A stretch of 64,000 nt of DNA from an uncultured Gammaproteobacteria bacterium (GCA_964507055.1 CAZDOJ010000001.1:13210-77209), one strand, 5' to 3'. Counted from the stretch's first letter, positions 7,525-62,588 are shown. Notes: generated by a model not told the origin, from the letters alone. Program-made: numbers and translations.

Positions 7525-7586
7525 TTGATTCTTCTAATAAGCGATGCAGTAACTATCGTGCTAGCTTCAATGTTATAATGTATGAG

Positions 7587-8303: not shown

Positions 8304-8352
8304 ATATTTTCCCACTTGAAACATCGCTTCAAAAAAGGTTATAAATAACACT

Positions 8353-10165: not shown

Positions 10166-10205
10166 GATATTGTTTTTGTGACAGGCTTTCTGCTATATTT
10201 GTCAC

Positions 10206-11525
10206 ATGATTAACCTCAAGAAAACAGATCCCCAAATTTATGAACTCATAAAGGCTGAAGAAAGACGTCAGAAAGACGTTCTCGAAATGATCCCTTCGGA
10301 GAATTACACATCACAAGCAGTGATGGAAGCTCTTGGTACAGTTCTAACAAATAAATATTCAGAAGGTTATCCAAAGAAACGATACTATCAGGGAAATGCT
10401 GTTGTCGATGAAGTAGAAATCCTTGCACAAGAACGTGTAAAGAAATTGTTTGGTGTGCCGTATGCAAATGTCCAACCATATTCTGGATCTCCTGCAAATG
10501 CTGCAATTCACTTTGCATTGATGGAGCAAGGCGATACGTTAATGGGATTGAAGTTGGCTTTTGGTGGACATTTGACCCATGGAGCGGCAATGAGTTACTC
10601 AAGCCGATTCTTCAAATCTGTGCAATATGAGCTTGGTCCTGACGGCTCACTCGATTACGATGCGATTGAGAAGTTAGCGATGAAGGAAAAGCCAAAAGTT
10701 ATTGTTTGTGGTTTTACAGCATATCCAAGAGCAGTTGATTTTAAACGGTTTGCACAAATCGCAGATAAAGTTGGAGCTTATTTACATGCAGATATCTCTC
10801 ATATAACTGGTTTAATTGTCGCTGGTGTTCATCAAAGTCCAGTTGATTATGCACACGTCATCATGACTACAACCCATAAAAGTCTTCGCGGTCCACGAGG
10901 TGCAATTATTATGGTTACAGAGAAGGGATTAAAAAAGAATCCTGATCTGCCAAAGAAGATTGATAGTGCAATTATTCCCGGATTGCAAGGCGGACCGCAT
11001 GACAATCAGACGGCGGCAATTGCTGTTTCATTAAAAGAGGCAAGTACAGCATCATTCAAAAAATATGGAGCACAAATTGTAAAGAATAGTAAGGCGTTGG
11101 CTGAAGGTTTGAATACATTTGGTTTTGATTTAATAAGCGGCGGATCTGATAATCATCTCATTCTTATCGATTTACGCAATAAAAAAGTAAATGGTGCAGT
11201 AGTTGCTTTGGCACTTGATGTCGCGGGAATAGTTACCAATAAAAATGGTGTACCTTTTGATCCAATGCCTCCATTTTATCCTTCAGGATTACGCTTGGGA
11301 ACTCCAGCTTTAACCACTCGTGGAATGAAAGAAAAAGAAATGAAGCAGGTTGCAATATGGATAAACCAAGTTGTTGAAGAAGTTGGCGATTTGATATTAC
11401 CTGAGGATAAAGAGGAACGGAAGCTTGTTTGGAAAAAGTATAAAGCTGATATTGTAAAGAATAAAGCTCTATTAAAAATTGCAAAAGAGATTAAATCATT
11501 TTGTACAAAATTCCCCGTACCATAA
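10206..11525 (+). CDS. glyA: serine hydroxymethyltransferase
   Basis: SENYTSQAVMEA, YYQG and TTTHKSLRGPRG (PLP lysine motif). TGcTATATT lies 6 nt upstream of the ATG. Confidence 0.92.
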   Translation: MINLKKTDPQIYELIKAEERRQKDVLEMIPSENYTSQAVMEALGTVLTNKYSEGYPKKRYYQGNAVVDEVEILAQERVKKLFGVPYANVQPYSGSPANAAIHFALMEQGDTLMGLKLAFGGHLTHGAAMSYSSRFFKSVQYELGPDGSLDYDAIEKLAMKEKPKVIVCGFTAYPRAVDFKRFAQIADKVGAYLHADISHITGLIVAGVHQSPVDYAHVIMTTTHKSLRGPRGAIIMVTEKGLKKNPDLPKKIDSAIIPGLQGGPHDNQTAAIAVSLKEASTASFKKYGAQIVKNSKALAEGLNTFGFDLISGGSDNHLILIDLRNKKVNGAVVALALDVAGIVTNKNGVPFDPMPPFYPSGLRLGTPALTTRGMKEKEMKQVAIWINQVVEEVGDLILPEDKEERKLVWKKYKADIVKNKALLKIAKEIKSFCTKFPVP

Positions 11526-11593: not shown

Positions 11594-12544
11594 TTATGAA
11601 GTGCAGATATTGGCTACGATATTTTCAAGAATCTTATCTAAATTGCCTCCGTTGATACTATTAAAGTAATGTGTCTCAGTTGGTGCTGAAGCAACTTCTT
11701 TCATTAATGTTTCAAGATATGGGAAAAGCACTGCATCACTTGGATAACTTGGACTGTAAATATTTACTGAATAGATCCCAACTCCCATTTGCTTGATATC
11801 ACTTGCTATATTTGTCGGAACTCTTGGATCCTGTTCTCTTGCAAAACATCGCTGCTGTGGTGCAGTATTCGGATCAGGTGTTTCAACATAACAGTTTCTT
11901 GGTGGAGGAACTTCTGGTACACCGTCTGTCATAAGAATTAAATTCCACTTATATCCAGGATAAGCTTTTTCATCAAGTTGTTCTGCAATTTTATCCTTGA
12001 CCATAGCCATACCATCTCTTGTTCTCGTGTAACCATCAGGTTTAAGGCCATTAATCGCTTTATCTAATTCAGGTTTTGCGTCTTTGTAATAATTGATTGG
12101 CACTTCTTCTTCCACATCTTTACTAAAAGTATACAAACCTACAACTGATTTCCCTCCAAGGTTTTCGAGAAAATATTTAACGGCTTTTTTCGTATTATCC
12201 ATTTTCCCAGCAAACTTCATTGAACCAGAGGTATCGACTAAAAAGATCATCGCGGAATTCTGTCCACAATTACTTACATTAAATGTTTTTAGCTGAAGAT
12301 TATTATCTGCTGAAGTCTGTGCGTCAGTTGGCATAACTATTCTTTGCTTTGGATAATCTTCTGGATTGAAGTGAGGTTCAAGTGTTGGTGGTCCACCTGG
12401 ACCGTTTGGGTCAACTGGCGTTCCGCCGCCTGAGGCTACAAAAGCTCCCGCGATGACCAGTCCCATGATAAAAAGAATGGAAATAGCATTTGTGCGTGCT
12501 TCTCTATATGGTAGGGGAGGTCTACTTCCTTTGATTTTGCTCAT
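11594..12544 (-). CDS. membrane-anchored vWA domain protein
   Basis: N-terminal TM segment (AISILFIMGLVIAGAFVA) and MIDAS motif MIFLVDTSGSM. Confidence 0.75.
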   Translation of the reverse strand: MSKIKGSRPPLPYREARTNAISILFIMGLVIAGAFVASGGGTPVDPNGPGGPPTLEPHFNPEDYPKQRIVMPTDAQTSADNNLQLKTFNVSNCGQNSAMIFLVDTSGSMKFAGKMDNTKKAVKYFLENLGGKSVVGLYTFSKDVEEEVPINYYKDAKPELDKAINGLKPDGYTRTRDGMAMVKDKIAEQLDEKAYPGYKWNLILMTDGVPEVPPPRNCYVETPDPNTAPQQRCFAREQDPRVPTNIASDIKQMGVGIYSVNIYSPSYPSDAVLFPYLETLMKEVASAPTETHYFNSINGGNLDKILENIVANICTS

Positions 12545-12555
12545 AAGAATAACAG

Positions 12556-13407
12556 CTAGAGCTGGCTTCCACCGCTGCTTCCACTTCCGCCGCCACCGCC
12601 GCCTTTATTGTGGGCGAGAACGCCATCTGCGTAGAAGTTATTATGTCCACTTACTTTCTTGAGATTATATGCCTGTACTGGACCAGGGAAATAATCCATC
12701 CTAGTAATCGCGACATATTTTCCTGAATCTTTCAATACTTTGTCTCCGACTTTAAGAGGTTTTACTTTCAATACAGCATTCTCTTGAGCTGTTTTCTCTG
12801 GAGAAATAGATTTCCAACCTTCTGATGTGTACAGTGGATGTTCATTCGTTACACCAAGAACAGTTCCATCAGCGAGTTTGACATTATAATGATGATCGCG
12901 AAGTGGGGCATCCATTTCTTGTACTTTTACTGCAACTTGCTTCTTGCCATCATACCCGATGACACTATCTCCAACTTTTACATCTTCGATATTCTTTTCA
13001 GAATAATCAGCCATTAAGATCTTTGTTCCAGCTACGAAGCATGTGCTTCCACCGCCGCCACCGCCGCCACCACCTGTTGCAGGAGGCTGAGGAGTCGGAG
13101 TTGGAGTTGGGGTTGGTGAAGGAGTCGGTGTTGGTGTAAGTGTGATGCCAGGAAAATCTTCAAGCTGGAGATTTGATTTTCCGTCAGTATCGTCACCACG
13201 TTGGATAATAACTGGTTGACTATCATCTGGGGAAGCAAACTTAGGAGCAGAATTGCCGAGCATCATAACGCCGCCGCCAATGACAATTCCTAGGAAAATG
13301 ATTGCATAGATGGTACCAGCACCTACAGCGCCACGAGATTTTTTAACCTTTAATAAAAGTGCGTTTTTAGGTTTTCGAGCAGTAGTAGTTTTCTTTTTAG
13401 CGGGCAT
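12556..13407 (-). CDS. membrane-anchored protein with PT linker and Hint (bacterial intein-like) domain flanked by poly-Gly
   Basis: TM segment (IYAIIFLGIVIGGGVMML), linker TPTPTPSPTPTPTPTPQPP, then G9-ST-CFVAGTKIL...TNEHPLYT...NFYADGVLAHN-K-G6. Confidence 0.8.
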   Translation of the reverse strand: MPAKKKTTTARKPKNALLLKVKKSRGAVGAGTIYAIIFLGIVIGGGVMMLGNSAPKFASPDDSQPVIIQRGDDTDGKSNLQLEDFPGITLTPTPTPSPTPTPTPTPQPPATGGGGGGGGGSTCFVAGTKILMADYSEKNIEDVKVGDSVIGYDGKKQVAVKVQEMDAPLRDHHYNVKLADGTVLGVTNEHPLYTSEGWKSISPEKTAQENAVLKVKPLKVGDKVLKDSGKYVAITRMDYFPGPVQAYNLKKVSGHNNFYADGVLAHNKGGGGGGSGSSGGSQL

Positions 13408-24090: not shown

Positions 24091-24912
24091 CTAAAATAGG
24101 AACGGCAAATTAAATACCTTAATCCAAAAGACTGTATAGATCGCAAAGAAAACGACAGCTCCCACAATATAAAGAACCCGCAGCAATGCTGAGGTCTCAT
24201 GTGGAGCGTTAGCCTGCGAAACTTCTGCTGGCGAAGGTAATGGCTGCGTAAAAACCTGTGCTTGGGGATCTCCGGGGGAAGGATTATAAGGAGTGACTGG
24301 AGCCATTGGGTCTGTATCTGGTGGATTTGCTTGGCTTGAATCAAGTGACGAAAATGCTTGTGGAGATGCTAAATCCGGTTGCGATTCTGTTGGTGCGGGA
24401 GCTGGATTATTGAAGAAAGCTGAAGGAGATCCTGAAGCAGATCCAAAGCTTGAAGATGAAGTAGGTTCAGATACCGGAGCAGGAGCATCTGACGCGAAAA
24501 GTGTTGCCGAAGGATCAGCTGGTTCAGGTGTTGTCGCAGGTGAAGCTGAGACTTGATCAAATGTATCCATAATTGGCGGAGCTGCTGGTTCAGGTGCAGG
24601 CATAGTATTTGAAAGTGTTGGATCTGTAATTGGACTCGCATTTGGTGATGTAGACAAAACGCTATTTGGATCAGAAGCGTTTACAAGTGGATCTGATGCA
24701 GGAGAAGAAAGATCTGTTGTAGGTGGCACGTCTCCAACTGCTGGATTCGGTGGCATCACAGAATCTGCAGGAGTTGGTGTATTTACTGGTGTATCACCAG
24801 GTGTTGTACCTGCAACATCATGTGCCGTTCCCATAATACGGTCATACGTCTCTCGTGCTTTTGGGTCGAGGTGGTTAAGGGCTTTTGGATCCATAAGGTC
24901 TCTTTTAATCAT
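24091..24912 (-). CDS. Pro/Ser/Thr/Ala-rich tail-anchored membrane protein
   Basis: 273 aa of low-complexity P/S/T/A body with a single C-terminal TM segment (LLRVLYIVGAVVFFAIYTVFWI). Confidence 0.6.
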   Translation of the reverse strand: MIKRDLMDPKALNHLDPKARETYDRIMGTAHDVAGTTPGDTPVNTPTPADSVMPPNPAVGDVPPTTDLSSPASDPLVNASDPNSVLSTSPNASPITDPTLSNTMPAPEPAAPPIMDTFDQVSASPATTPEPADPSATLFASDAPAPVSEPTSSSSFGSASGSPSAFFNNPAPAPTESQPDLASPQAFSSLDSSQANPPDTDPMAPVTPYNPSPGDPQAQVFTQPLPSPAEVSQANAPHETSALLRVLYIVGAVVFFAIYTVFWIKVFNLPFLF

Positions 24913-44514: not shown

Positions 44515-44550
44515 CCTGTAATAGTTAAATAGTATATTTTTTGTTATAAT
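44515..44550 (+). promoter_or_regulatory. island junction promoter: CCTGTAATAG-N20-TATAAT (T15)
   Basis: Box at 44515-44524 and TGtTATAAT at 44542-44550. ATG follows 6 nt later. Confidence 0.55.
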
Positions 44551-44556: not shown

Positions 44557-46401
44557 ATGGTAGAACAATCAAGAAGAATTGCACCACAGGGAAGTCGTAC
44601 TTTTCGTGGTACAGATGTGTCCGCAATGCATGCAGAAATGCAAGGTATCCTTACGGCTTCGAGAGATAATGATCCGCATGCCTCCACAATAGACTCATAT
44701 AGAAAGATTGCTGATGCACTTCCTCTACGGGTTCCAGCTGCTACATACCAAGCCGTTAGTGAATCTATCAATAATCCTGATCCCGTGATTTCAAAAGCTG
44801 GGAAGGAAGTTTTTACTTGGCTAAATATAAAGACTGTAATTTCAGTTGCAGAAAGATATTCGGGAGAAGGTTTGGGAGATGTTGAAGATTTCGCTCAGGA
44901 AGGGGTTACTATCCTTTATGAAAATGTAGACACAATTCATCAGAGGGCAGATAGTTCTATGTATACTTATCGTTTGGCTGAAGAGGCTCTGACTAATAGT
45001 ATTGCTCGTGAGCATGGATTTAGTGTTACTATGAGCGAAAATAGAGTTGCATTACCTATTGGTCAGACCGTGACTGAATTATTTGATAATGCTCCCTTAG
45101 GGGTTGATGAAGTAGGGCTTGAAAGGCAAGCAGTAGTATTAGCACAGAAATTTGGAATTACTGAAGATGCTGCATTTAAATATCTCTCAAGGAGGAGTGC
45201 ATTGCAGCCAATTCACGAAAGTAAGATGCAGCCAGAACGTGAGGATACAGAGGTAATAGAAGATATTATGGTTTTAGATGAGCTTCTGAGGATGCTTCCT
45301 GAAAGGAATGAACAAATGCTGCGGATGAGATTTGGGAATGGTTTTACACTAGATGAAATTGCCCAACGCTACAACCTGGTTCCTGAACGTGCTCGTCAAA
45401 TAATTGCTAAAACAATTAAATCATTACAGCATGAGCAAGTTATCGATTTTGTTACAGGGGGAGTTAAACCCGCATCTCGAAGTCAGCGAATAATGACATC
45501 AGATGGAGAAGAGGGGCAGGATATTGAAGATGTCATCCGCGAAAAGCGTTTGGCTGGATATGGTGAATCTGGATCAGGTTCGTGGGCTGAATCTAGAAAG
45601 GAATTGGCTAATATTGCACATGCATTCTTAGCTGAGCCGCAAATTGGGTATCCGGAAATTGCAAATAGGCTTGGAATTACAGTAGATAAAGTAATTTATA
45701 GTGTACAAACTCTTCGTTCAAAATATTTGTTACCAGATGCTAATGCAGGTAAGCATGCAAAAATAACTCCCGATGATGGCAACAGAACATTGCAGGAAAG
45801 ACTACATTCACGATATGAAAGACAAGAATCCGAGATTGTAGTTCCGCCAATTCAGGGGGAAAGAGAAACAAGTACTATCCCAGCAATTGAGGACACTTCT
45901 TCTAAATCGAAACCACCATCAGAAAGAACACTTCGTGCTTTAATTTTGCAAAAACAAGCGTGGAAGTTACAGCAAGAAGACGGAAAAACGTACGATGAGA
46001 TTTCTGAAATACTCAATGTTAGTCTAGGATCCATACGAAGATATCTTCAAAACGAACGGCGAGACCTTGGTCTTGCAAATCAGACGAATGTCGGACGTCC
46101 TAAAGATCCTGAGGTGCAAGCTAGAAGAGCCGTTTTGGCTGAGAGAATTAAAGCTGGTGAGCCTCTTAGAGTTCATGGATTTGCTAAAGAGTTTGGTACT
46201 ACTGTAGGTACTATAAATTTTGATATACGTGAAATTTTGAGTGGATATCATACTTCTTCATCAGAGACAACAATATTTTCTCAAGAAGAACATGCTTCGC
46301 AACAGCCTAAACTTGAGGAGCCAGAGGTTACGATCGCTGATGTAGCTGTCGATTGGGATGGTACCGATGATCCTGAAGCAGGTCCTCAACGAACTTTATA
46401 A
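44557..46401 (+). CDS. tail-family protein T15: sigma-70-family N-terminal half + extra HTH modules
   Basis: Region 2-like NIKTVISVAERYSGEGLGDVEDFAQEGVTILYENVDT. Region 4.2-like LPERNEQMLRMRFGNGFTLDEIAQRYNLVPERARQIIAKTIKSL. Further HTH-like segments are present. C-terminus VAVDWDGTDDPEAGPQRTL. Confidence 0.8.
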   Translation: MVEQSRRIAPQGSRTFRGTDVSAMHAEMQGILTASRDNDPHASTIDSYRKIADALPLRVPAATYQAVSESINNPDPVISKAGKEVFTWLNIKTVISVAERYSGEGLGDVEDFAQEGVTILYENVDTIHQRADSSMYTYRLAEEALTNSIAREHGFSVTMSENRVALPIGQTVTELFDNAPLGVDEVGLERQAVVLAQKFGITEDAAFKYLSRRSALQPIHESKMQPEREDTEVIEDIMVLDELLRMLPERNEQMLRMRFGNGFTLDEIAQRYNLVPERARQIIAKTIKSLQHEQVIDFVTGGVKPASRSQRIMTSDGEEGQDIEDVIREKRLAGYGESGSGSWAESRKELANIAHAFLAEPQIGYPEIANRLGITVDKVIYSVQTLRSKYLLPDANAGKHAKITPDDGNRTLQERLHSRYERQESEIVVPPIQGERETSTIPAIEDTSSKSKPPSERTLRALILQKQAWKLQQEDGKTYDEISEILNVSLGSIRRYLQNERRDLGLANQTNVGRPKDPEVQARRAVLAERIKAGEPLRVHGFAKEFGTTVGTINFDIREILSGYHTSSSETTIFSQEEHASQQPKLEEPEVTIADVAVDWDGTDDPEAGPQRTL

Positions 46402-48695: not shown

Positions 48696-48731
48696 AAATG
48701 TCAGGTTTGTTGAGCTAAATTTTGCTATAAT
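48693..48731 (+). promoter_or_regulatory. junction repeat TAGAAATGTCAGGTT + TGcTATAAT (T17)
   Basis: A 15-mer at 48693-48707 that includes the T16 stop codon and is identical to 50766-50780. The -10 element is at 48723-48731. Confidence 0.55.
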
Positions 48732-48737: not shown

Positions 48738-50768
48738 ATGAAAGAACTACTCAGAGCGAGAAAATCATTTTTGAGAGGAGAACCCCTCCGTCATAATCCT
48801 GGTGATGATGATCGGACCCAGGATAAATTTGCTAACGTACCACATGGTGGTCCCCAAAAAGAAGGAAGATTACCAGGAGAAAGAATTAGTGATCAACAGC
48901 GTGATGAGGTGCTATCCGGAGTTCTCAATAGTGAAGTAAAGATGCTCGTTTTGGCGGGAATGGTTCTGGACCCTGAAGTATACACTGCTGGAGATCTCGA
49001 TAGTATGATACGGGATATGCAACGTGGACAAAAAGGTTGGAATTTAAGTAGCAACATAGCATTCGGGTACTGTCTCAATTCTTTCGATGGGATTGGACTA
49101 GTCGCAAAAAGTGAACCTGTAAACGATCGGACGACCTTGGGATTTAAAGCAACACAAAGAGGCAAAGACACGTTACCAGTTATTGGACATCTCTTGGATT
49201 TCTCACTGAAACATCCAGATATAGCTTTGCGGCGTGTCTTTTCAACAACTGCTTCTCCTTCAAAGGCCACGGCTGAAGGCGAACAAGCTGGAGACTATAA
49301 AGTCCGTGCTCCCAAAAGACGATTTCGTATTCTTAAAGCACTCGTCGAGAACGAGGGGCCACTACGTGAGTCAGATATGCGAAAGCTTGTAAATAATTCA
49401 TCTGTTGAGTTGCATCTGGAAAGCCTTCATAACATTGGGCTTATAACTTATGAGAACACAAGAGTTGGTGCAGATCATATCACCTATACAGTTATTCCAG
49501 ATGCTATCTCTGATGTTCATGCTCTGCCTTCTATTCCAACGTCAACCGATAACCAGCTGCAATTACGTGCAGCATATATTACCTCAAAACTTTCGGGTGA
49601 AATTTCTCCAAAAGATGTATATGAACGATTAGTCGCTTTATTCCCACAATATAAAGAACGGGATCCTCGTGGTACAGAAAAGGTAATAAATAGAAAGCTC
49701 CATCACATGTCAATGCATGGATTTATAGAAAAAGGGAAACGCACAATAGACCGAAAAACAGATATCTCAGTAACTGAAGAACAGCGAGAAACTATAGCTG
49801 AGATCGTGGGAATTATTGATGCATTTCAGGCAGGAGATCCGACATTCTTAGCAGAAGGAGAACAGAAAGCTCGACGAATTATCCAAAATCCTGAGGCAGC
49901 AGCTACTCTTATGCGTAAGGCTCAGGAAAGTTCGCATACAGCTCTTGCTCTTGGTCAAGCAGAATTGAAGAGAAGATTAGTGACTTTTGCTGAACAAAGC
50001 GAAGGTCCGATAACAAGTGTGCTTGCTGCTGAATATCTGGAGCATCGTGTGGGTAAAAGTTATGCTGGTGCGATATTACGAGAACTTGCAAGAGAAGGAA
50101 AGATACAGGTTGAATCACGGGGTCAAGTTATAAGATATGGTCCTGTCGCTCCGCAGGAACAAGAGATCCCTTTGCCTGAAGATAAGCGAGGTTTAGAACA
50201 AGTTGCAGTTACGGTAAATGCGGAGATTAAGCCATTTGCTGATGGTATCAAGTTGCTTCTTGCTGCATATGCTTCACATACCGATCCTCAGTCAGAATCA
50301 GCTCTTGAAGTAATGGATCAAATTCGTTCTGTACGAGCACTGCCTGAATATGCACATCTCATTTCGAAACGTGATCAGATAGAACAACGGCTTGCTGTTA
50401 TTGCATCAGAAGAGGCTGGTATCGAGTTAGCGAATGAAGAACCCGTTGTAGAAACAGAAGTTGAGATGCAAGAAAATACGGAGGTTGTTCTGAAACCCCA
50501 AAATAGTCCAAAATCGAAGACAGTTGAGCTTCGTGAGCGAATTCAAGCCTTTAAGGATTTAGGAGTATCTGATTCTAGCGAAATTGCACAATGGATGGGT
50601 GTAAGTAGATCTACCATCACAAGACATATTCGGCAGATGCAAGCACAAGAAACACAAGAAGAACCCATACTTCCTGCAGTTGAAGATCAGCCATTAAGTG
50701 CATTAGATGCTGGGATTGATTGGAGTGGAGATGATGATCCTGATCCCGGTTTACAAAGAACACTTTAG
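48738..50768 (+). CDS. tail-family protein T17 (family C, winged-helix/HTH-rich)
   Basis: The first ~130 aa are homologous to T18. HTH-like segment SEIAQWMGVSRSTITRHIRQM. C-terminus AGIDWSGDDDPDPGLQRTL. Confidence 0.85.
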   Translation: MKELLRARKSFLRGEPLRHNPGDDDRTQDKFANVPHGGPQKEGRLPGERISDQQRDEVLSGVLNSEVKMLVLAGMVLDPEVYTAGDLDSMIRDMQRGQKGWNLSSNIAFGYCLNSFDGIGLVAKSEPVNDRTTLGFKATQRGKDTLPVIGHLLDFSLKHPDIALRRVFSTTASPSKATAEGEQAGDYKVRAPKRRFRILKALVENEGPLRESDMRKLVNNSSVELHLESLHNIGLITYENTRVGADHITYTVIPDAISDVHALPSIPTSTDNQLQLRAAYITSKLSGEISPKDVYERLVALFPQYKERDPRGTEKVINRKLHHMSMHGFIEKGKRTIDRKTDISVTEEQRETIAEIVGIIDAFQAGDPTFLAEGEQKARRIIQNPEAAATLMRKAQESSHTALALGQAELKRRLVTFAEQSEGPITSVLAAEYLEHRVGKSYAGAILRELAREGKIQVESRGQVIRYGPVAPQEQEIPLPEDKRGLEQVAVTVNAEIKPFADGIKLLLAAYASHTDPQSESALEVMDQIRSVRALPEYAHLISKRDQIEQRLAVIASEEAGIELANEEPVVETEVEMQENTEVVLKPQNSPKSKTVELRERIQAFKDLGVSDSSEIAQWMGVSRSTITRHIRQMQAQETQEEPILPAVEDQPLSALDAGIDWSGDDDPDPGLQRTL

Positions 50769-50804
50769 AAATGTCAGGTTCACTACAATGAAGTTTGTTA
50801 TAAT
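50766..50804 (+). promoter_or_regulatory. junction repeat TAGAAATGTCAGGTT + TGtTATAAT (T18)
   Basis: A 15-mer at 50766-50780 that includes the T17 stop codon. The -10 element is at 50796-50804, with the ATG 6 nt later. Confidence 0.55.
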
Positions 50805-50810: not shown

Positions 50811-53528
50811 ATGAAAGAACGATTTCGAGAAAGACGTATACAAAGGGAGGTTTTACGACATCATCCTGATCCGGGCGAACAGGATAAATTTTCGCAAGGT
50901 GGAGCACATCCTGAAGTTCCTGGTGAACGGAGAGAAAGAGTATCGACACAGAAGATTGATGAACTCCTGGCAGGAGTGTTTAATAATGAATCCAAGATGA
51001 TTGTCCTTGGTGGGATGATCCTCAATCCTCACTGGTATTCAGATCAGCAGCTTCATGATATGACAATGCGGATGCAACGAGGAGAGCGAGGATGGGGCAT
51101 TGGAAATCACATTCCCTTTGGTTACTGTCAGGATTCTTTTGATGATATCGGACTTGTTGCAAAAAATGAAATCGATGGGGCTCGCGATAGTTTAAAATAT
51201 CATGTGACCCAAGATGGTATTAGTGCACTTCCTGCTATTGGTCATCTACTTTCGTTTGTTGAAGAATCAGGCATCTCTTTGCATAGAACTTTCTCAACAA
51301 CGAGTACTCCTTCTTCAGCAGCGAGTATTGATTCTGAGGAAGAACATAATGATGATCGTGACATACGAAAACGTGCACCAAAGACAAGGTATAGAATTTT
51401 TAAACAATTACTTGCTCATGAAGGACCAATACAAAAAGTTGATTTACAAGAAAATCTCAACGTGAATGGGAGTTCTCTCGGGCACCATTTAAGAAACCTC
51501 AGTATTGAAGGTATGCTTGACTATCAAAGCTATTATGATGGTGAACCACTCGCTGTTACATATCGCATCAATGCAGATGCTTTTCAAAAGATAAACTATG
51601 ATGATCTTCCACGAGATGCAAGATCAACGATTACAACGATTACGAGACGAGTTGCTTTTATTGCTGCTCATATGGAAGGGACTGTTACTCCTGCTAAAGT
51701 GCATGAAAAATTGCTTGCTCTGTATCCTCAATATGCAGAGAGAACTGAGGGTCATGTTCGAAGCAGCGTGAATCGTGCCTTAACGCATCTTGCAAAACAT
51801 GAGTATCTACAGCGAGGAGAGATCTCTGCAGATCGTCCTTCATTAATCTCTTTAACTGATGAGCAGCGAGAAAGAATGCAACAACTTGTAACGATCATCG
51901 ATACATTCCAATCAGGTGATCCCGAATTCTTAGCACAAGGTGAGCAAAAAGCCCGCGAAATTTTAAATGATCCTCAAAGAGTAGCACGATTAATGAGACA
52001 CGCACAAGAAAATTCTAGAATAGCATTAGCTTTGGGGCCTGCGGAGTTAAAACAGATGATCATCGAAATCATTAAAGATAGTGACACACCATTATCCGGA
52101 GCGAGAATTGTGCCGTTGATGGACCATCGGATTGGACAGCCGTATGCAACAGCTTTATTAAAGCAATTATATGATGGTGGTGAAATAGCCTTGGTAAGTG
52201 AAGGAAGATCAAAATGGTATGGAAAACTTCAAGAAACAGGAGGTGTTGACGCATTACCCGAAGATAGAGATGGGTTAAGATCATCACTGCAACAAGTTAC
52301 TGCTGAATTTCAGCCATACGAAAATGGCCTGGGGCTTTTATTTGCTGCTTTAGACACGCATGATCCAGCGTCAGCAGATGCCCGAGAGGTTTTAAATCAG
52401 ATTGAATATGTCCGCATGGATCCTGAATATCGAAGACTTAAAGGTAGAATCGACACTATACAAGATAGGCTGGAGAGTTTCGCTGATGAAATTGAAGATG
52501 AAGCAGTTGCGGACGAAACTCAGGTTAGAAAAAGAACACCACGCCAAAGTTCGGTCGTCATTCGCCAACGGATAGATGCTTTTAGGGATTTAGGGATTAC
52601 CAATCAAAGCGAAATTGCACGTTGGATGGGCTTCTCTCCTGATAGTTTGAAATATCATTTCCAGTCGATGGACGATACGCTTAATAGAGCAATATCTCCT
52701 GAGCGAATGGCAAAAATTGATATATCCAGAGCATTGCGTGATCAGGATCAATTAACTCCCGCACAAATTGCAGAACGGATGGGTACCACTGAGAGTACAG
52801 CTCGTGCATATCTCGAACTTGCAGATGATGCTGAAAGGCTTGCAAATCAACGCGAAGTAACTTCTCCTTATCAAGATCGCCTTGTTAGAGTCCGCGAAAT
52901 GGAAGAAGAGTGGGGTGACATGATGCAAGTTACACCGATGGTTCATCAAATGGCTGCGGAGTTAGGCCTATCTGTTGCATCGATCCATAATTATCGAAGA
53001 GAACTTTTTGCGACACGTGCTCGAGCAGCAAGAGTACGGGAAGGCCAAATAGAACAGGTCCGAGCGATGACTGAAGAGTTACAGCAGCTTCCTAACCAAG
53101 AACGTGTATTAGTGATTGCTGAAAGACTAGGATTAAATCGATCAACTGTATATCGCTTTCAAGATAAAGCATTTGGAGTTGCAGAGCAAAGAAAAGTAGG
53201 AATTGCTGAGCGACGTGCACGGGTTGCCCAGCGTTCAGAAGAGCTTCGTGCAATGGGAATCCCTATAAAAGAAGCTGCAAAAGTTATTGCTGAAGAAGAA
53301 GGTGTCTCTCCTGGGACGATAATGTTGGACAGAAGAGCTTTATTACAATCACAGCGAGAAGCCACACAAGCAGAAAATCTATCATCTTCTGTAGAAGAAA
53401 CCATTGTTTATGAGGCAGATCATAGCTTGCCTGATCTTTCGTCAGAGCAATCATTAAATACCTTCAATGAAACAATTGACTGGTCTGGTGAAGATGATCC
53501 GGATATTGGACAACACAGGACACTTTAG
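50811..53528 (+). CDS. tail-family protein T18 (family C, multi-HTH)
   Basis: At least 5 HTH-like segments: IARWMGFSPDSLKYHF, IAERMGTTESTARAYL, MAAELGLSVASIHNYR, IAERLGLNRSTVYRF, IAEEEGVSPGTIMLDR. C-terminus ETIDWSGEDDPDIGQHRTL. Confidence 0.85.
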   Translation: MKERFRERRIQREVLRHHPDPGEQDKFSQGGAHPEVPGERRERVSTQKIDELLAGVFNNESKMIVLGGMILNPHWYSDQQLHDMTMRMQRGERGWGIGNHIPFGYCQDSFDDIGLVAKNEIDGARDSLKYHVTQDGISALPAIGHLLSFVEESGISLHRTFSTTSTPSSAASIDSEEEHNDDRDIRKRAPKTRYRIFKQLLAHEGPIQKVDLQENLNVNGSSLGHHLRNLSIEGMLDYQSYYDGEPLAVTYRINADAFQKINYDDLPRDARSTITTITRRVAFIAAHMEGTVTPAKVHEKLLALYPQYAERTEGHVRSSVNRALTHLAKHEYLQRGEISADRPSLISLTDEQRERMQQLVTIIDTFQSGDPEFLAQGEQKAREILNDPQRVARLMRHAQENSRIALALGPAELKQMIIEIIKDSDTPLSGARIVPLMDHRIGQPYATALLKQLYDGGEIALVSEGRSKWYGKLQETGGVDALPEDRDGLRSSLQQVTAEFQPYENGLGLLFAALDTHDPASADAREVLNQIEYVRMDPEYRRLKGRIDTIQDRLESFADEIEDEAVADETQVRKRTPRQSSVVIRQRIDAFRDLGITNQSEIARWMGFSPDSLKYHFQSMDDTLNRAISPERMAKIDISRALRDQDQLTPAQIAERMGTTESTARAYLELADDAERLANQREVTSPYQDRLVRVREMEEEWGDMMQVTPMVHQMAAELGLSVASIHNYRRELFATRARAARVREGQIEQVRAMTEELQQLPNQERVLVIAERLGLNRSTVYRFQDKAFGVAEQRKVGIAERRARVAQRSEELRAMGIPIKEAAKVIAEEEGVSPGTIMLDRRALLQSQREATQAENLSSSVEETIVYEADHSLPDLSSEQSLNTFNETIDWSGEDDPDIGQHRTL

Positions 53529-53534: not shown

Positions 53535-53570
53535 CCTGTAGTAGAATTTTGAGCCTAAATTTGGTATAAT
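53535..53570 (+). promoter_or_regulatory. island junction promoter: CCTGTAGTAG-N20-TATAAT (T19)
   Basis: Box at 53535-53544 and TGgTATAAT at 53562-53570. ATG follows 6 nt later. Confidence 0.55.
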
Positions 53571-57279: not shown

Positions 57280-58797
57280 TTAAAGTGTTTTCGGTAGATC
57301 TTGATCAGGTTCATCTTCTCCAGCAAAATCAACTGCATCGGTAGGTATTCCATGCTCTGACGCAAAGAATATAGGCATAGCAGCTTTCGTTATCTGAATT
57401 TGTTCTGGTTTTTCTGTAACCTTTGGTTTTGGAGTAATTTCGTCTATCATACCTAATTTTTCTGCTTCATCGCGAAGAGATGGTGCACCTAATGCTTGTG
57501 TGATCGCTGATGAAGACGTATCAATTACTTCTTCAGGCTCTCCAGAAGCTCGAATTTGCTCAACAGGAATACCTCCAATTTCAGTAATTTCATGTGCATA
57601 GCGTAATGTCCCATCAAGATTTTCAATAATTGCAGGTTGTGTCTCTACTTGAGTTTCGGGCTTTAGGCGGATTCTTTTATATTCGTATTGTTTTATCTTT
57701 TTAGGCCTTAGTCGTCCTTTGAGATATCGCTTGATGCGTCCTTCTTCGCCTGCTTCTTGATCTTCAGCTCTGGCTATCTCAGCAACTTCTTTTGTTCCAT
57801 CGTTCAGTGGTCGCCCTGCTATAATTCCTTGTGTCGAAGGTGGTGTAAATCCATTTTCTGTATAGAGCTGCTTCATTCTCGCCGCGTATGTTTTGTCTAC
57901 TTCTTCAGCCTGGCCGTAATCTCCTTGCAAATCAAAACCGAGCATTCTACGAAACTCATCACGTCTCCGTTCAACAATATTTGAAAGATTATCATCTAAT
58001 TCGATGGATGGATTTCCGCCTTTTATCGTTTCGCCTAGTTCAGGGATTTGGGCCATCCATGCATCATGAGCTCTTGCTGCTTCAGGGTGAAAGAGACGAT
58101 TATATCCATTCCATGGAGCAGCTTCGATAGCTGCAACCCATTTTTGGATTATTGCACGACGCTCCATGTATTCAGTGCGAAGTCGGTCACGATCTGCGAT
58201 CTCTTCAGCACTTGAACCAAGCGGATCCCATGGAATAAATGCGACAGTACCTGTAGCTCTGGATTTTCCATTTTTTCTTGGACCAAATAACACACCTCGC
58301 TGATGATCGGGATTTGCAACCGGACATCGACAGGAATAGGTACATACTTTTACTTCACTCTTGGGAATTATTTTATCAGGGGAGATATATACTTTTGCTT
58401 CATCAGTTAGTTCATCAAGGAGCTCTGTTGCAATACTGAGGGAGTCTGTTATCCCGGCTGCCATATCTTGCTCAGTTAATAAGTCCTTGGCTTCAAGTAC
58501 TGCCTGTTTGCCGAGGCGAAGTTCATGCCTTGTCGGTTCTGTTGAAGTTTCAGTGGCCGTTTTTTCTATATCCGTAGGGGAAATACCATGCAGCATTGCA
58601 GCAGTTACAAGTCCATCAGTTGCGAGTCTTCTTGCATCTGGATCATCAATCTGTTGAGCACTAACTAACGCAAAAGAAATAGGAAGCACATATCTATCTG
58701 CAAGTTCTCTCTCAGATTGAGCTGTCCGCTCTCGTGAAGCAGCTGGAATTCCATCCGGATGTGGATGTCTTGGTCGGAATCTATCAGGAGTGTTCAT
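57280..58797 (-). CDS. tail-family protein T21, operonic with the coupling ATPase
   Basis: The ATG lies 1 nt after the stop of 58799-62551. C-terminus DAVDFAGEDEPDQDLPKTL. No relaxase-type motifs noticed. Confidence 0.85.
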   Translation of the reverse strand: MNTPDRFRPRHPHPDGIPAASRERTAQSERELADRYVLPISFALVSAQQIDDPDARRLATDGLVTAAMLHGISPTDIEKTATETSTEPTRHELRLGKQAVLEAKDLLTEQDMAAGITDSLSIATELLDELTDEAKVYISPDKIIPKSEVKVCTYSCRCPVANPDHQRGVLFGPRKNGKSRATGTVAFIPWDPLGSSAEEIADRDRLRTEYMERRAIIQKWVAAIEAAPWNGYNRLFHPEAARAHDAWMAQIPELGETIKGGNPSIELDDNLSNIVERRRDEFRRMLGFDLQGDYGQAEEVDKTYAARMKQLYTENGFTPPSTQGIIAGRPLNDGTKEVAEIARAEDQEAGEEGRIKRYLKGRLRPKKIKQYEYKRIRLKPETQVETQPAIIENLDGTLRYAHEITEIGGIPVEQIRASGEPEEVIDTSSSAITQALGAPSLRDEAEKLGMIDEITPKPKVTEKPEQIQITKAAMPIFFASEHGIPTDAVDFAGEDEPDQDLPKTL

Positions 58798-58798: not shown

Positions 58799-61700
58799 CT
58801 ACTTACCTAACTTTGGTGGCCCATCGTCTTTGCCTTTTTCATTTTTCTTTTCCATTTCATTGTAAAGTTCAACTTCTTGCTCCATAGTAAGTGGTGCATC
58901 TAATTCAGGACGAGGTTTTGGTTCAATTGCTGTTGTTTGTCCTCCAAGTACTTGTTTATCCGTTGGTGTGATATTTTGCGTTGGCTTAACTGTCTCTCCT
59001 TCAATAACAAATGAATCAGGTCTTCTTGCTAGTTCTCCACGTGGTTTTGGTCCAAGTCTTGGCCGTAGTGCTTCTATCTGTTTTGCAGTGACCAACTCAA
59101 CAAAGATTGGTCTACCATTTTTAAGTGCTACAATTCCTGTAAAGTCAGGCAATCTTGTAATATCTTCAGGTCTGACGATTGGTTCCCGTACGTCCTCATC
59201 AGTTTTTGTTGTTACAGTGATTTCTGGAATTCTTTGGCTTGGGTTCGTCGTCCTACTTATCTCTCCGCCTTTTCCTCGAGTAGTCGTTGTGCTGCGAGGC
59301 GTTCTATGTGCTGGAGTTGTTGCTTTACTTTCTTTTGTTACGGTACGAGTATGTTGTCCGAAATATGCACTAAATTCGTCAACAGTGGCTTTGTCATCAA
59401 GATTTGGGAGGAGTAATCTACCACCATGACTGTTACTTCTTACTGTAACATATCCATCTTGGGTCCAAATTCTTCGAGCCTGTCCACCATCTTGTATTGC
59501 CCCGAGATATTGCTGCCATCTCTTTCGAGAAAGTGCTAAGAATTGATCGTAGTTACGAATTGGTGCAATATGAGGCAATTCGTCCAGAGCTCCAAGCATT
59601 CGTGGTCCCATAGGTAATCCTTCGACACCGCGTCTTTCTGAATTTTCACCATGTGCTCTAAAATGTGTCATAAGATGTGCAAGGAAGAGCCCTCGGTATC
59701 GTTCTTGATCTGATTCGTGAGCCATCATATAAAGTGATGGACGATTTTCAAAGGTATCATCACTATACATAGTATTGGGATCAATTTCATGTACTTTCGT
59801 TGCATCTTGCACTTTTGGATCTGTCCAAGGTTCAAGTGCTTGGCGTGCCATTGTAATAGCTGATCGTGCGTTTTCTGCACCCGTTCGTAAACCTTCTTTT
59901 AAGTCGAGAAGTGCATTCCATGCCTGGACTGAATCTGATCGGAGTGCCAGACCTTCTCTAATTTTTTCTTGGTCACCGTAAGCTGCACCCTCAGCAATTA
60001 TTCTTCGTGCTTCACCTTCCTGCCATACACAGAATCCAGCAAGTTTTGGTAGGGGACTAAGTTGTCCTTTGATTGTAAAGCGTTGAGCGGCTTCAAGAAC
60101 GTGACCCATATGTCGGGGAGATTCCATATTATATCGTCCGTTGATATACAGTAATGGAGTCATCAACATACGTGCTTGACTATGCCAATAGTCCATATTG
60201 GAGTCGCTATCATTACCTTTGCTTATTCCACTGATAAGTTCGTTTGCAATTTTCATTGACTCAGACCATGTCCGTGTATGTTCAAGTGGATTCCATCGAT
60301 GGGTGCCTTCTCCTGAAGTATCAAGCGGATCCCATCTGTATACATCTCCATGAGAACGAGCCCAACCTTCAGTTTTTTTCCAGATTTCACTTCCAACAGC
60401 TGTTGATATCACCAGACCTCGTCTTGCGAGAATATTTGGAACAATGATTGATTCTGATTTACCTTGTCCTGTTGGTCCAACAACAAGTCCATGTCCACCT
60501 TCTCCTCCAGCAATGAGTCTTCCGCTACTTCGTCCCCAGATGATCCTGTCTCCGAGTTTATCTATGTTTCTGCTTGCGAAATAATCTTGTCTAGACATTT
60601 CTCTTCGTGTAGGCCAACCATATTCTGGATCTCCACGTCGACTTCTGCGACGCATTGCACGTGTATCATCGATCATCTGTTGGACGACAAAATCAACCCC
60701 ATCTCTCATTGCTCTCATAATTTCTGACTGGCTTCTGAATTCTGTTTGTTCAGTTATTCTTGTAGGACCATCGATATCTGGCATTCGTTCAGGGCGGGGA
60801 ATAACTCGTGTTCTTAGATGTTGAGGTTCTCTTCTTGTTGGGTTTGTTGAGGCTTCAGTAACCACTGGCTTTGCGTTGTCAGGGTGAGCTGGTTCTTTAC
60901 CCGTAGCGGGGACCACCAATACACCATTAACAAATTTCAGTTTTTCTGTTTGCTCCTCAACGGGAATATTTGGTGTACCGTCGAGTGGGATCGTACCTCG
61001 AATTTTGTCGGGAGTTAATGTGCTGAGGTCTTCTCCTGCAGGTACAATAATAAGATTCCCTTCATGAACAACAAGTCGTGCATTTGGGATTGAGCGTCGT
61101 TCTGTCCAGTGTACTTCGACTGTCTCAGCTTTTTCTCCACCGGACCAAAGGCGAATAGTTGTGTGCTCATTAACTTTTGTTTCAAAATACGTACCTTCCT
61201 CAGTTGACCTCTTTATTGCATTCTCACTGATTTCTCTCCATTTTTCATTGTAATCCTTCACAACTTGAGTAGCTGGTGCTTCCATCCGTGATCCTACTTT
61301 TTGCAATTCTTTTTGTACATCAGCAGCGAAAAGATCTAGATCTGGAAGTTCCTCTATATTTGGTAAACTAGGATCTTGATTTACTTTTGTTACTGTGCCT
61401 TGTAAGTCTTTCGTGGTGGAATTTTGTGTAAGCCTAATACCAAACTCAAGCGTTTCCCATTCTTTTTGTGTGAGGGGTCCTGATTTTTCTTTTAATCGTT
61501 CGGTTAAACCTGTGAGATCTGTTTCTATATGAGCAAGTATCGTAAATGCTGCATTTTGTCTTTGCACCTGGGTTCTGATTTCCTCTGGAATCGCTTCTAC
61601 CGGAAGATCTGATAATCGTTCAATAAGTTGATAATCAATATATTTAATGAGGACATTTCCCAATACTTTCTTTTCTGTTTCGGTTAGAGATTTTAGATCT

Positions 61701-62551
61701 CGTTGCATTTCATCTTCTGGAAGTGCAATTTCATCAGCAGTAGTTTCTTCAGCACCAGAAGGGTATGAAGGTGGTATCTTTCTATCTTCGACGGGAGCAC
61801 CTTCGGCTGAAACAGTTTGTTTCTGTGTTCCAGTTGTTTGTTCTTCTGAGCCGACTTTTTCAGTAACAGGAGCTTCTGTTGTCGAAATATCTTCTGTGCG
61901 GATTGTAGTTTGCAGGCCTGTATCTATCGTTGCTTGCTGATCTGTATCATCCGTAGATTCTCTACTACTGGAACCTGTTTGATGATCACTTCCTGTAGTA
62001 TCCTGCTCTGTGTCTGAACGATCATTCCCATGTGCATCGTCCTGACTAGATGTATCTTGTCTATCTGTCTGTTGGCTGTCTTCATTCGCTGTTTCTTGTT
62101 GTTCGGTTCTGACCTGATTTCTTTCAGTTTCTATTTGTGGTTGCTGAGGAACTTCATCACGAATAAAGGCTTGTTGTGTAAGAATACCTGCTCGTATATT
62201 AGATATTGGGTCTCGATCTCGTCCTAAGTAATTCTCATTTAAATTGGTCTGTAATTCTCCCGGGTTAGTTTGTGCAATGTCATACAGAGCAGATCCAATT
62301 TGATCAACTGTTTCTATTTCTGGGTTTCCAGTTAGTGTCCGAGCAATGTCTACATATGCAGCTTTAAGTGGAGCTTCTGCTCGTATAATTTGTTCTGCTG
62401 AGGGCCTATCTTTTCCGATAGATTTTGTGGCTTGTCTGCGAATATCTCCCAATACGAAAGAATTAATCCGTGCAATCCCAGCAGTTCTTGGATCAACTGC
62501 TTGATCTTTATGTTCATCTCCTGGTCTGCCAATTGGCCTTTCTGCTGCCAT
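58799..62551 (-). CDS. VirD4/TraG-family type IV coupling protein-like ATPase with ~690-aa N-terminal extension
   Basis: Walker A: GHGLVVGPTGQGKSESIIVPNIL (coding 60455-60478). Walker B region: LGALDELPHIAPI. GAIQDGGQ is also present. These match the TraG/VirD4 pattern. No hydrophobic TM segment is evident. Confidence 0.8.
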   Translation of the reverse strand: MAAERPIGRPGDEHKDQAVDPRTAGIARINSFVLGDIRRQATKSIGKDRPSAEQIIRAEAPLKAAYVDIARTLTGNPEIETVDQIGSALYDIAQTNPGELQTNLNENYLGRDRDPISNIRAGILTQQAFIRDEVPQQPQIETERNQVRTEQQETANEDSQQTDRQDTSSQDDAHGNDRSDTEQDTTGSDHQTGSSSRESTDDTDQQATIDTGLQTTIRTEDISTTEAPVTEKVGSEEQTTGTQKQTVSAEGAPVEDRKIPPSYPSGAEETTADEIALPEDEMQRDLKSLTETEKKVLGNVLIKYIDYQLIERLSDLPVEAIPEEIRTQVQRQNAAFTILAHIETDLTGLTERLKEKSGPLTQKEWETLEFGIRLTQNSTTKDLQGTVTKVNQDPSLPNIEELPDLDLFAADVQKELQKVGSRMEAPATQVVKDYNEKWREISENAIKRSTEEGTYFETKVNEHTTIRLWSGGEKAETVEVHWTERRSIPNARLVVHEGNLIIVPAGEDLSTLTPDKIRGTIPLDGTPNIPVEEQTEKLKFVNGVLVVPATGKEPAHPDNAKPVVTEASTNPTRREPQHLRTRVIPRPERMPDIDGPTRITEQTEFRSQSEIMRAMRDGVDFVVQQMIDDTRAMRRRSRRGDPEYGWPTRREMSRQDYFASRNIDKLGDRIIWGRSSGRLIAGGEGGHGLVVGPTGQGKSESIIVPNILARRGLVISTAVGSEIWKKTEGWARSHGDVYRWDPLDTSGEGTHRWNPLEHTRTWSESMKIANELISGISKGNDSDSNMDYWHSQARMLMTPLLYINGRYNMESPRHMGHVLEAAQRFTIKGQLSPLPKLAGFCVWQEGEARRIIAEGAAYGDQEKIREGLALRSDSVQAWNALLDLKEGLRTGAENARSAITMARQALEPWTDPKVQDATKVHEIDPNTMYSDDTFENRPSLYMMAHESDQERYRGLFLAHLMTHFRAHGENSERRGVEGLPMGPRMLGALDELPHIAPIRNYDQFLALSRKRWQQYLGAIQDGGQARRIWTQDGYVTVRSNSHGGRLLLPNLDDKATVDEFSAYFGQHTRTVTKESKATTPAHRTPRSTTTTRGKGGEISRTTNPSQRIPEITVTTKTDEDVREPIVRPEDITRLPDFTGIVALKNGRPIFVELVTAKQIEALRPRLGPKPRGELARRPDSFVIEGETVKPTQNITPTDKQVLGGQTTAIEPKPRPELDAPLTMEQEVELYNEMEKKNEKGKDDGPPKLGK

Positions 62552-62579: not shown

Positions 62580-62588
62580 ATTATAACA
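62580..62588 (-). promoter_or_regulatory. extended -10 (TGtTATAAT) for the coupling-ATPase operon
   Basis: The reverse complement of attataaca is TGTTATAAT, 28 nt upstream of the ATG at 62551. No SD in between. Confidence 0.45.

Follow-up and report, generated by a model that had tools for sequence, protein, structure and literature searches.

The 64,000-nucleotide stretch of DNA analysed here (the window; CAZDOJ010000001.1:13210-77209, deposited under the name of an uncultured Gammaproteobacteria bacterium) encodes on its minus strand a 1250-residue ATPase, P0001, whose core is that of a genuine VirD4/TrwB-type coupling protein (T4CP) of type IV secretion systems (T4SSs). P0001 is encoded inside an array of genes for soluble proteins that end in a common C-terminal tail. 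Canonical VirD4/TrwB proteins possess an N-terminal transmembrane (TM) domain (TMD), typically of two helices, that anchors the hexamer; in P0001 this anchor appears to have been lost, with a cytoplasmic region of ~670 residues in its place. At slightly better than even confidence, we favor a model in which P0001 is a dedicated, peripherally docked T4CP that recruits its tailed neighbors for export via a T4SS encoded elsewhere.

The ATPase core and the region that precedes it

The elements of the gene are as follows, with residue numbers referring to P0001. Predicted features are from AlphaFold (AF2) and carry its predicted local distance difference test (pLDDT) score.

58799-62551, minus strand: whole open reading frame (ORF), 1250 aa, long-form VirD4-type T4CP without a TM helix
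62147-62551, minus strand: first N-terminal module (module 1), residues 1-135, of moderately ordered composition and unmatched in Pfam and the PDB
61682-62134, minus strand: acidic T/E/D/Q/S low-complexity tract, residues ~140-290, probable disordered linker
61202-61681, minus strand: helical module, residues ~291-450, AF2 helices with pLDDT 55-70 over residues 291-376
60872-61189, minus strand: beta-rich module, residues ~455-560, strands from a low-confidence prediction
60617-60736, minus strand: amphipathic helix and basic patch RSQSEIMRAMRDGVDFVVQQMIDDTRAMRRRSRRG, residues 606-645, AF2 helices at model positions 319-349
59045-60547, minus strand: T4CP core, residues ~669-1169, nucleotide-binding domain (NBD) with inserted all-alpha domain, AF2 pLDDT >90
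60455-60478, minus strand: Walker A GPTGQGKS, residues 692-699, from the sequence
Residues ~784-917, minus strand: all-alpha domain insertion, all-helical in the AF2 model
59579-59584, minus strand: Walker B D990/E991, from the sequence and the alignment
58802-59044, minus strand: C-terminal extension, residues 1170-1250, ending ...KGKDDGPPKLGK, predicted terminal helix at residues 1223-1239 (AF2 pLDDT ~80)

The assignment of the core is secure. Pfam places T4SS-DNA_transf at residues 679-1093 (5.4e-29; 101.8 bits against a cutoff of 20.1), TraG-D_C at residues 985-1135 (9e-10), and TrwB_AAD_bind at residues 988-1149 (8.7e-9), while the VirD4/TraG models of NCBIfam are all sub-threshold, the best being the CD1115 family of integrative and conjugative element (ICE) type (4.6e-20, under its cutoff). 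A sequence-profile search of the PDB retrieves Cagbeta (4e-26), TrwB (3.5e-21), and DotL (2.5e-5), plus two weak ABC transporter chains. The AlphaFold model, a monomer computed with a 150-sequence alignment, was compared with the PDB by Foldseek, which ranks Cagbeta first (1.7e-15), then TrwBdeltaN70 (~1e-12; TM-score 0.70 on the target) and DotL (9e-7); E values for HerA, DndH, and VirB4 are only 1e-5 to 1e-4, so that Cagbeta and TrwB lead them by 7-10 orders of magnitude. Within the same alignment K698 is invariant and D990, E991, Q1020, and Q1024 are near-invariant, and the catalytic residues are intact in P0001. The preliminary description of this gene, made from the sequence alone, had recognized a VirD4/TraG core with its Walker A at about residue 692. 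Both readings are borne out, as GPTGQGKS begins at residue 692 and the profile searches proposed there put P0001 inside the T4CPs rather than with a DNA translocase or terminase.

An ATPase of FtsK, TcpA, or terminase type was rejected. None of these families matches P0001 at E<=1 in Pfam or NCBIfam, FtsK and TcpA are absent from the PDB profile matches, and Foldseek places VirD4/TrwB-type proteins first. Searches with PADLOC and PHROGs gave no defense or phage family for the T4CP, its downstream partner, or the tailed proteins described below, with the exception of sigma/helix-turn-helix (HTH) matches in one of the latter.

No TM helix is present in P0001 as judged by hydropathy, the criterion used for every TM call in this work (a Kyte-Doolittle mean over 19 residues, KD19, of at least 1.6). 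Within residues 1-690 the maximal KD19 is 0.79, against the usual TM threshold of ~1.6, and no run of 12 or more residues is free of charged or polar side chains; the claim that no membrane helix precedes the Walker A is therefore upheld, no TM segment having been detected. As a positive control, the same measure reaches 1.6 upstream of the Walker A in 122 of the 150 nearest T4CPs. Long forms aside, the TM-less proteins among these relatives are short, with the Walker A at residues 5-127. The median position of the Walker A in the 150 is residue 162, more than 600 upstream residues occur in only three long forms, and the next position is 314. Long T4CPs are available from five loci, including P0002 (locus L003) and P0003 (locus L004), and the maximal KD19 before the Walker A is 0.79-1.41 across all five (0.98-1.41 in the four relatives of P0001), in no case TM-grade. 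T4CPs of the TM-less class are generally short proteins. The view that absence of a TM helix is remarkable in itself was overstated, as a minor class of T4CPs that lack a TMD is already accepted (class iii, Llosa & Alkorta 2017) and includes TraJ of pIP501, a protein that pairs with the membrane protein TraI (PMC7431656).

The region upstream of the core (hereafter the N-region) begins with module 1 and the acidic tract. The low-complexity tract noted in the preliminary description is real and spans residues ~140-290; it is composed of 17% T, 13% E, 12% D, 11% Q, and 10% S with a net charge of -25, residues 151-200 are 88% disorder-promoting, and the tract is not a tandem repeat at the DNA level. 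The equivalent of the beta-rich module is conserved in the relatives as GDKVVI..VIQG..P(N/D)G(E/Q)T(N/S)L.F. Residues 606-645 have the highest hydrophobic moment of the N-region (0.62), are followed by RRRSRR, and are situated where ordinary T4CPs exit the membrane, which makes this segment a candidate peripheral membrane-binding or docking element. The N-regions of all five T4CPs match no family in Pfam and nothing in the PDB, PHROGs, or PADLOC; the P0001 N-region, through its helical module, draws apolipoprotein A-I alone from the PDB, at a non-significant E of ~0.2. Structure prediction, which had been proposed for residues 1-690, was confident only for the core and left the fold of the N-region unassigned. 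With a single sequence as input, residues 290-690 have a pLDDT of 39.

Rates of substitution indicate that the N-region is real, functional, and under purifying selection. Ratios of nonsynonymous to synonymous change (dN/dS, Nei-Gojobori) were calculated for the closest pair of loci, L003 and L049, with the regions given for that pair, and are approximate because dS, at ~1.1-1.5, is near saturation.

Residues 1-280: dN/dS 0.12
Residues 281-420, linker: dN/dS 0.57
Residues 421-655: dN/dS 0.11
Core: dN/dS 0.08
C-terminal extension: dN/dS 0.16

The succession of 0.12, 0.57, and 0.11 identifies, at the level of coding sequence, two selected modules joined by a relaxed, fast-evolving linker; the linker position is taken by the acidic tract in P0001 and by a P/A/T-rich tract in L052. 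The value of 0.12 belongs to the counterpart of module 1, and that of 0.11 to the counterpart of the beta-rich module. Pairwise identities of N-region and core are 70 versus 84%, 38 versus 65%, 44 versus 61%, and 32% (partial) versus 43%, the N-region diverging at ~2-fold the rate of the core in every pair compared. The core of P0001 is 30-34% identical to those of its relatives, and its N-region has no detectable similarity to the other four (BLAST E 2.4, HMM E 1, HHalign probability 0.2%). Given the ~2-fold rate, this lack of detectable homology is consistent with simple extrapolation. A further observation concerns P0002, residues 79-241 of which, in its first N-terminal module, share a ~170-aa domain with the tailed protein encoded at L004:5467-6948 (26% identity, E 1e-5), which suggests exchange of domains between tailed proteins and T4CP N-regions.

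Proteins of this architecture are scarce in sequence collections. When 1.84 billion cluster representatives were searched exhaustively by phmmer for relatives of residues 290-1250, 1816 matches had E<=0.001, and only three of them reach E<1e-30, namely P0001, P0002 (1349 aa), and P0003 (1306 aa). The remaining top matches are T4CP-type proteins of 206-904 aa, and the nearest ordinary T4CPs are only ~30% identical to P0001. A word-indexed search with full-length P0001 returned the query alone, probably because low-complexity words swamped it; with the acidic tract removed, one extra match was obtained, an ordinary VirD4 of 578 aa. No match was found in the GTDB representative genomes scanned with the ATPase part, and the JGI metagenomes, scanned with the alignment of the three proteins, yielded one weak ordinary relative and nothing closer. 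Several Logan assemblies and an NCBI contig of 1.32 Mb encode a protein identical to P0001.

Tailed genes and lineage-specific tails

The genes that surround the T4CP gene, and the sequence element upstream of it, are the following.

24938-57275, plus strand: tailed-gene array of 20 consecutive soluble ORFs, putative cargo, with the tail [LI]DWxGxxDPDxGPx[RK][ST]L-COOH
57280-58797, minus strand: 505-aa tail-bearing partner, the 21st tailed gene, starting 1 nt past the T4CP stop; operon
62698-64000, plus strand: start of a divergent 527-aa tailed cargo gene that runs off the window, first of at least five tailed genes beyond the edge
62580-62588, minus strand: extended -10 promoter-like box TGTTATAAT, which precedes the ATG of the T4CP by 28 nt
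~33311-33679, plus strand: small tailed ORF of at most 123 aa, short or degenerate, ending ...NIFDGSNDGQSGPRRSL, in the 33298-33755 gap and under the 150-aa ORF cutoff, counted among the 20 ORFs of the array

The association of the T4CP with the tailed proteins (referred to below as cargo) is borne out by position, as the P0001 gene is embedded in their array. Past the end of the window, Logan contig L001 carries five more tailed genes, divergent from the T4CP, such that at least 26 tailed genes flank the T4CP on both sides over at least 48 kb; they begin at 24.9 kb in the window and continue for at least 9 kb past its edge. The partner encoded directly downstream is soluble (KD 0.92) and matches no Pfam family. 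It has no promoter box of its own and starts 1 nt after the T4CP stop, which indicates co-transcription with the T4CP.

Five loci from four lineages were compared: the window, L003 and L004 (the contexts of P0002 and P0003), and L049 and L052, which were reached via homologs of the largest cargo family. In all five a translationally coupled partner of ~483-505 aa lies immediately downstream of, and co-directional with, a long T4CP (1306-1410 aa in the relatives). The partners directly downstream of the T4CPs in L003, L004, L049, and L052 are orthologs; by BLAST those of L003 and L004 are 45% identical (E 1e-66), and the comparison of the window with L003 gives E 5e-5. The four loci with sequence upstream of the T4CP each have a divergent cargo gene of 527-536 aa there, followed by more soluble orphans. 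The T4CP is the only recognizable enzyme or ATPase conserved in all five.

The tails differ between these lineages. Cargo in L003, L049, and L052 ends in EPxVGxSxxxSIxxQE...KGK[ST]K and cargo in L004 in EPxVxRxRTIxxRE...GK[ST]K, and every cargo protein in one genome bears the tail type of that genome. When the tails were removed and the bodies compared by all-against-all BLAST, many proved to be orthologous between lineages at 26-54% identity. The 527-aa cargo beside the window T4CP is 46% identical to its ortholog beside the T4CP of L003 (E 4e-140, and 1e-139 with the tails removed), and other orthologous bodies include a sigma/HTH-rich pair, proteins of 372, 398, and 883 aa, and the operon partner. 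The five loci show, at the sequence level, conserved synteny and co-variation of tail with lineage. The change of tail on orthologous bodies is concerted evolution, which would be expected of a signal that is read by one co-evolving receptor, and the combination of conserved synteny with lineage-specific tails on orthologous cargo argues for some component of the locus evolving in step with the tail.

The C-terminus of the T4CP itself had been proposed to echo part of the tail, a claim for which there is weak support. On a position-specific scoring matrix (PSSM) of the tail anchored at the C-terminus, P0001 does not fit, scoring -9.2 against a leave-one-out tail median of 19.6. If the last 8 residues are allowed a shift of 0-3 residues, P0001 reaches 7.7 on the window-type profile, a value that none of 147 ordinary T4CP C-termini equals. 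The corresponding scores are 7.2 for L052 and 6.0 for P0003, each best on the profile of its own lineage, whereas P0002 and the T4CP of L049 tie between two profiles; echo and lineage match in three of the four lineages. These values lie far below the 18-21 of real tails, and what holds is a weak, shifted, lineage-matched echo that could conceivably act as a pseudo-substrate or autoinhibitor.

Most tailed ORFs have no Pfam family. Three of them (44557-46401, 48738-50768, and 50811-53528) encode sigma-70 r2/r4 and multiple HTH domains, a cargo type that is kept across lineages (L049:19413-20993 and L003:16534-21287) and that, if exported, could act on host transcription. The tailed ORF at 27053-28978 matches Pyr_redox_3 (pyridine-nucleotide-disulphide oxidoreductase; 3.8e-10) and is the only enzyme-like cargo recognized. 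An 883-aa cargo encoded past the right edge (L001:4406-7057) contains ~600 aa of S/T/D/G-rich acidic low-complexity sequence similar in composition to the acidic tract of the T4CP.

The window contains 19 copies of the promoter-like element TGnTAYAAT where 6.1 would be expected, a number reached in 0 of 100 shuffles, and nearly all tailed genes have a box of their own. Eleven copies are situated directly upstream of tailed-gene starts and end ~5-10 nt before the ATG, and no Shine-Dalgarno sequence was found at the boxed tailed genes. Because the boxes lie so close to the start codons, the tailed genes would be individually promoted and their mRNAs essentially leaderless. Examples of the form TGnTATAAT within 27035-53570, all on the plus strand, are at 44542-44550, 48723-48731, 50796-50804, and 53562-53570. 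The ORF starts given at 24938, 35098, 38784, 39961, and 46434 probably lie too far upstream; in each of these five, an ATG inside the ORF and just past a TATAAT box gives the N-termini MEKDRLF, MRQEREP, MVEA.., MNNIEG, and MIERRPQ, which are like those of other cargo. Cargo from the window (24938-58797) and from L001, L003, L004, L049, and L052, as well as the five T4CPs, have similar M-x-E-[RQ]-x-[RK]-rich N-termini (MTEQKR, MVEQSRR, MKERFRER, MAAERPI, MATEQRR, and MAERERK, for example). This common N-terminus could reflect what leaderless translation demands, or it could be a second signal, at the N-terminus.

Proposed role, known systems, and alternatives

In the mechanism that we favor, the P0001 hexamer would be both the recruiting receptor and the motor for at least 26 soluble proteins with a common ~20-residue C-terminal tail, binding the tail jointly with the co-transcribed ~500-aa tailed partner. 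Having no membrane helix, P0001 must reach the channel peripherally, and could do so through protein contacts of the N-region and/or the amphipathic-basic segment 606-645. Cargo would be fed to a chromosomal monoderm-type T4SS encoded elsewhere in the genome, would leave the cell, and would probably enter a bacterial host. We infer that the tail is the secretion signal, P0001 its reader, and the T4SS the exit route. A broader proposal, which we advance only tentatively, is that the locus is the first recognizable effector-translocation module of a Patescibacterial T4SS, in which the N-terminal platform and the partner read a genome-specific tag on at least 26 cargo proteins, sigma/HTH cargo reprograms host transcription, and tag and receptor co-evolve as lock and key.

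With TrwB of R388, Cagbeta/Cag5 of H. pylori, and VirD4 of Agrobacterium, P0001 shares the NBD, Walker A and B, the inserted all-alpha domain, and the fold. It differs from them in having no TM hairpin, in the ~670 family-less residues that precede the core, and in the absence of adjacent relaxase or T4SS genes. TraJ of pIP501 is alike in being a VirD4-type ATPase of a monoderm-type system that is missing its own TMD and needs recruitment to the membrane (PMC7431656). P0001 differs from TraJ by its large selected N-extension and by its adjoining partner, which is a soluble, tail-bearing protein rather than a membrane protein. The features new to P0001 are this large selected N-region in place of a TMD, the lack of an adjacent membrane partner, the soluble tailed operon partner, and the central place of the gene in a lineage-tailed cargo array. 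In Legionella Dot/Icm, DotL functions with DotM, DotN, IcmSW, and LvgA, and the C-terminal signals are acidic or charged E-block sequences. According to PMC12857230, DotL likewise is a T4CP that serves many unrelated effectors via short C-terminal signals and is bound by auxiliary proteins. DotL, a structural relative of P0001 that both the PDB profile search and Foldseek detect, is membrane-anchored, its signals are degenerate, and its effectors are scattered; here, the motif is sharp (leave-one-out PSSM median 19.6), the genes are clustered around the T4CP, and, in a monoderm epibiont, the target would be another bacterium. The X-T4SS of Xanthomonas and Stenotrophomonas delivers bacterial-killing effectors by means of XVIPCD, a folded domain of ~120 residues bound by a VirD4 with a normal TMD. 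A conserved C-terminal element on diverse effectors is common to both systems, but the element is a tail of ~20 residues here and no toxin/immunity pairs are evident.

The host of the locus is an ultrasmall bacterium, a Levybacteria-type member of the Patescibacteria, as indicated by its ribosomal protein S2, which is 81-84% identical to that of Candidatus Levyibacteriota metagenome-assembled genomes and 93% identical to that of OZ246394.1 (L006), and the locus is chromosomal. Patescibacteria, the phylum of this host, harbor widespread MPF-FATA-like T4SSs that are non-conjugative, with rare relaxases, and for which a non-conjugative, unknown function has been proposed (Quinonero-Coronel et al. 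2025; Wang et al. 2023; as given in PMC12102498). That source counts 5,713 T4CPs (VirD4 homologs) in the phylum, 148 of them near virB4, the t4cp gene usually being far from virB4. A 2025 review describes Patescibacterial T4SSs as essential for epibiotic growth (PMC12857230). Neither source names substrates in the portions available, and we found no description of tail-bearing substrates in Patescibacteria in the literature. The main text of PMC12102498, as far as available, contains no TM-less long T4CPs, tailed cargo arrays, or secretion signal; the word 'transmembrane' occurs in it zero times and 'C-terminal' once, in a passage on VirB1.

If the proposed role is correct, the locus supplies a sharply defined C-terminal motif and at least 26 candidate substrates for a T4SS whose cargo is unreported in the available portions of PMC12102498 and PMC12857230. 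Those candidates that carry sigma/HTH domains are of a kind that could plausibly act within a host bacterium. The dedicated coupling ATPase, in four independent lineage variants with differing tails, amounts to a natural specificity-swap experiment. A T4CP that can exchange its membrane anchor for a large selected cytoplasmic region would also bear on how T4CPs dock to T4SSs, contacts that are 'not yet defined' (PMC12857230).

Several observations weigh against this role. The window and its flanks, ~10 kb on the left and ~9 kb on the right, show neither VirB4 nor VirB6 nor any other T4SS gene, and the link to a T4SS is therefore indirect. No TraI-like adjacent membrane partner exists, all neighbors in the five loci being soluble: within 10 kb of the T4CP the maximal KD19 is below 1.5, and one cargo protein at 1.63 lies ~24 kb off. 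Even with the 150-sequence alignment, most of the N-region is predicted at pLDDT <50 and no fold can be assigned to it. In Southlakia, the one genetically tractable species, the T4SS is essential for epibiotic growth and t4cp is not, and the authors of PMC12102498 suggest that Patescibacterial T4CPs may have been exapted. Finally, a family of three clusters among 1.84 billion is so extremely rare that it cannot be a general Patescibacterial mechanism and may be a lineage-specific elaboration.

The alternatives differ in which part of this scheme they replace. A possible but less probable one keeps the export route and follows the canonical division of labor, in which the all-alpha domain, the C-terminal extension, or both would read the tail, and the N-region, which the preliminary description had suggested as a tail receptor or adaptor platform, would merely dock to the T4SS inner-membrane complex or to the membrane. 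Signal and adaptor binding map to the all-alpha domain and C-terminal tails in TrwB, TraD, VirD4, and DotL, which counts for this division. P0001 has both an all-alpha domain and a C-terminal extension of ~80 aa with a confident terminal helix, and the amphipathic/basic segment is located exactly at the ordinary T4CP membrane exit. However, no selected elements of the locus change faster than the N-region and the tails, whereas a surface for docking to the T4SS should evolve conservatively, and the weak C-terminal echo would fit a pseudo-substrate bound elsewhere in the T4CP. Taken alone, the fast evolution of the N-region, which outpaces every other structured part of the T4CP, is compatible with a tail receptor and a docking module equally.

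The main rival to export through a T4SS is an exapted, T4SS-independent role, which we consider unlikely. P0001 would then be a T4CP-like ATPase that serves as a cytoplasmic unfoldase, an assembly chaperone, a sorting hub, or the feeder of another export route, the loss of the anchor reflecting soluble function. The missing TM helix fits such a protein, as does the absence of T4SS genes from ~85 kb of sequence, and the t4cp of Southlakia is non-essential and perhaps exapted (PMC12102498). Yet all the catalytic and all-alpha-domain features of translocating T4CPs are kept, with the core under strong purifying selection (dN/dS 0.08), and a t4cp far from virB4 is the rule in Patescibacteria (PMC12102498). 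The tails themselves also speak for secretion over exaptation. Charged C-terminal tails on unrelated soluble proteins are a hallmark of T4SS substrates.

It is improbable that the tails are unrelated to secretion, serving instead as degrons, oligomerization tags, or localization tags or persisting as remnants of duplication, with the T4CP merely in the same island. Many cargo proteins are indeed paralogous (one 10-member family and several smaller ones), and part of the tail sharing could to that extent be inherited. Against this, unrelated bodies (sigma-like, Pyr_redox, and many singletons) bear the same tail, and the synteny of T4CP, partner, and cargo is kept in five loci. Descent by duplication is ruled out as the explanation by the different, genome-uniform tails of orthologs elsewhere.

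That P0001 is the ordinary conjugative T4CP of an integrated element, or owes its form to a missed TM segment or start or to ORF fusion, is very improbable: although most T4CPs are conjugative and the best NCBIfam match is of ICE type, the gene is chromosomal and beside housekeeping genes with no relaxase, VirB4, integrase, or tRNA seen nearby, the long N-terminal ORF is length-conserved in five loci without frameshifts and under purifying selection, and the hydropathy is far under the TM level by a method that detects TM segments in most relatives. Fusion or mis-start artifacts and a conjugative-element T4CP were rejected on the conserved N-terminal ORF, selection, and gene context.

Genomic surroundings

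The window and its flanks (~10 kb on the left, ~9 kb on the right) are also free of any recognized relaxase, integrase, or tRNA, and no boundary mark of an island (tRNA or Rfam element) was found. The first 24 kb of the window encode thyA, DHFR, SHMT, rpsB, a 151-aa EF-Ts, RRF, an M50 protease, pentose-phosphate enzymes, and a class II aminoacyl-tRNA synthetase, and the 10 kb to the left of the window contain only surface-protein and housekeeping genes. OZ246394.1, which has the S2 protein closest to that of the window, is titled Gammaproteobacteria; the other close matches are all Levyibacteriota/Patescibacteria, which makes this title look erroneous or provisional. A peptide scan of OZ246394.1 found no T4CP relative.

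Exactly at the left boundary of the array, and divergent from its first tailed gene, 24091-24912 on the minus strand encodes a 273-aa orphan whose C-terminus forms a hydrophobic anchor (KD 2.41). This orphan is the sole membrane protein near the array.

Further left lies a surface-type cluster (582-4812, minus strand, and L053:12273-18966) with VWA and SdrD B-like domains. Dockerin-like repeats DDNGVVNSFDYNLFLRELS form the ends of two of its surface proteins, and ~6 kb further left a protein with a cohesin domain is encoded; the cluster may represent a cohesin-dockerin assembly in a Patescibacterium. A dense deoxynucleotide-metabolism cluster occupies 4950-11525, where two dCTP deaminase-like proteins and two thymidylate kinase paralogs accompany thyA, DHFR, and SHMT. 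At 12556-13407 on the minus strand, adjoining a VWA protein (11594-12544), is a gene for a protein with a Hint/intein-like domain, which begins with a TM segment and ends in poly-Gly/Ser.

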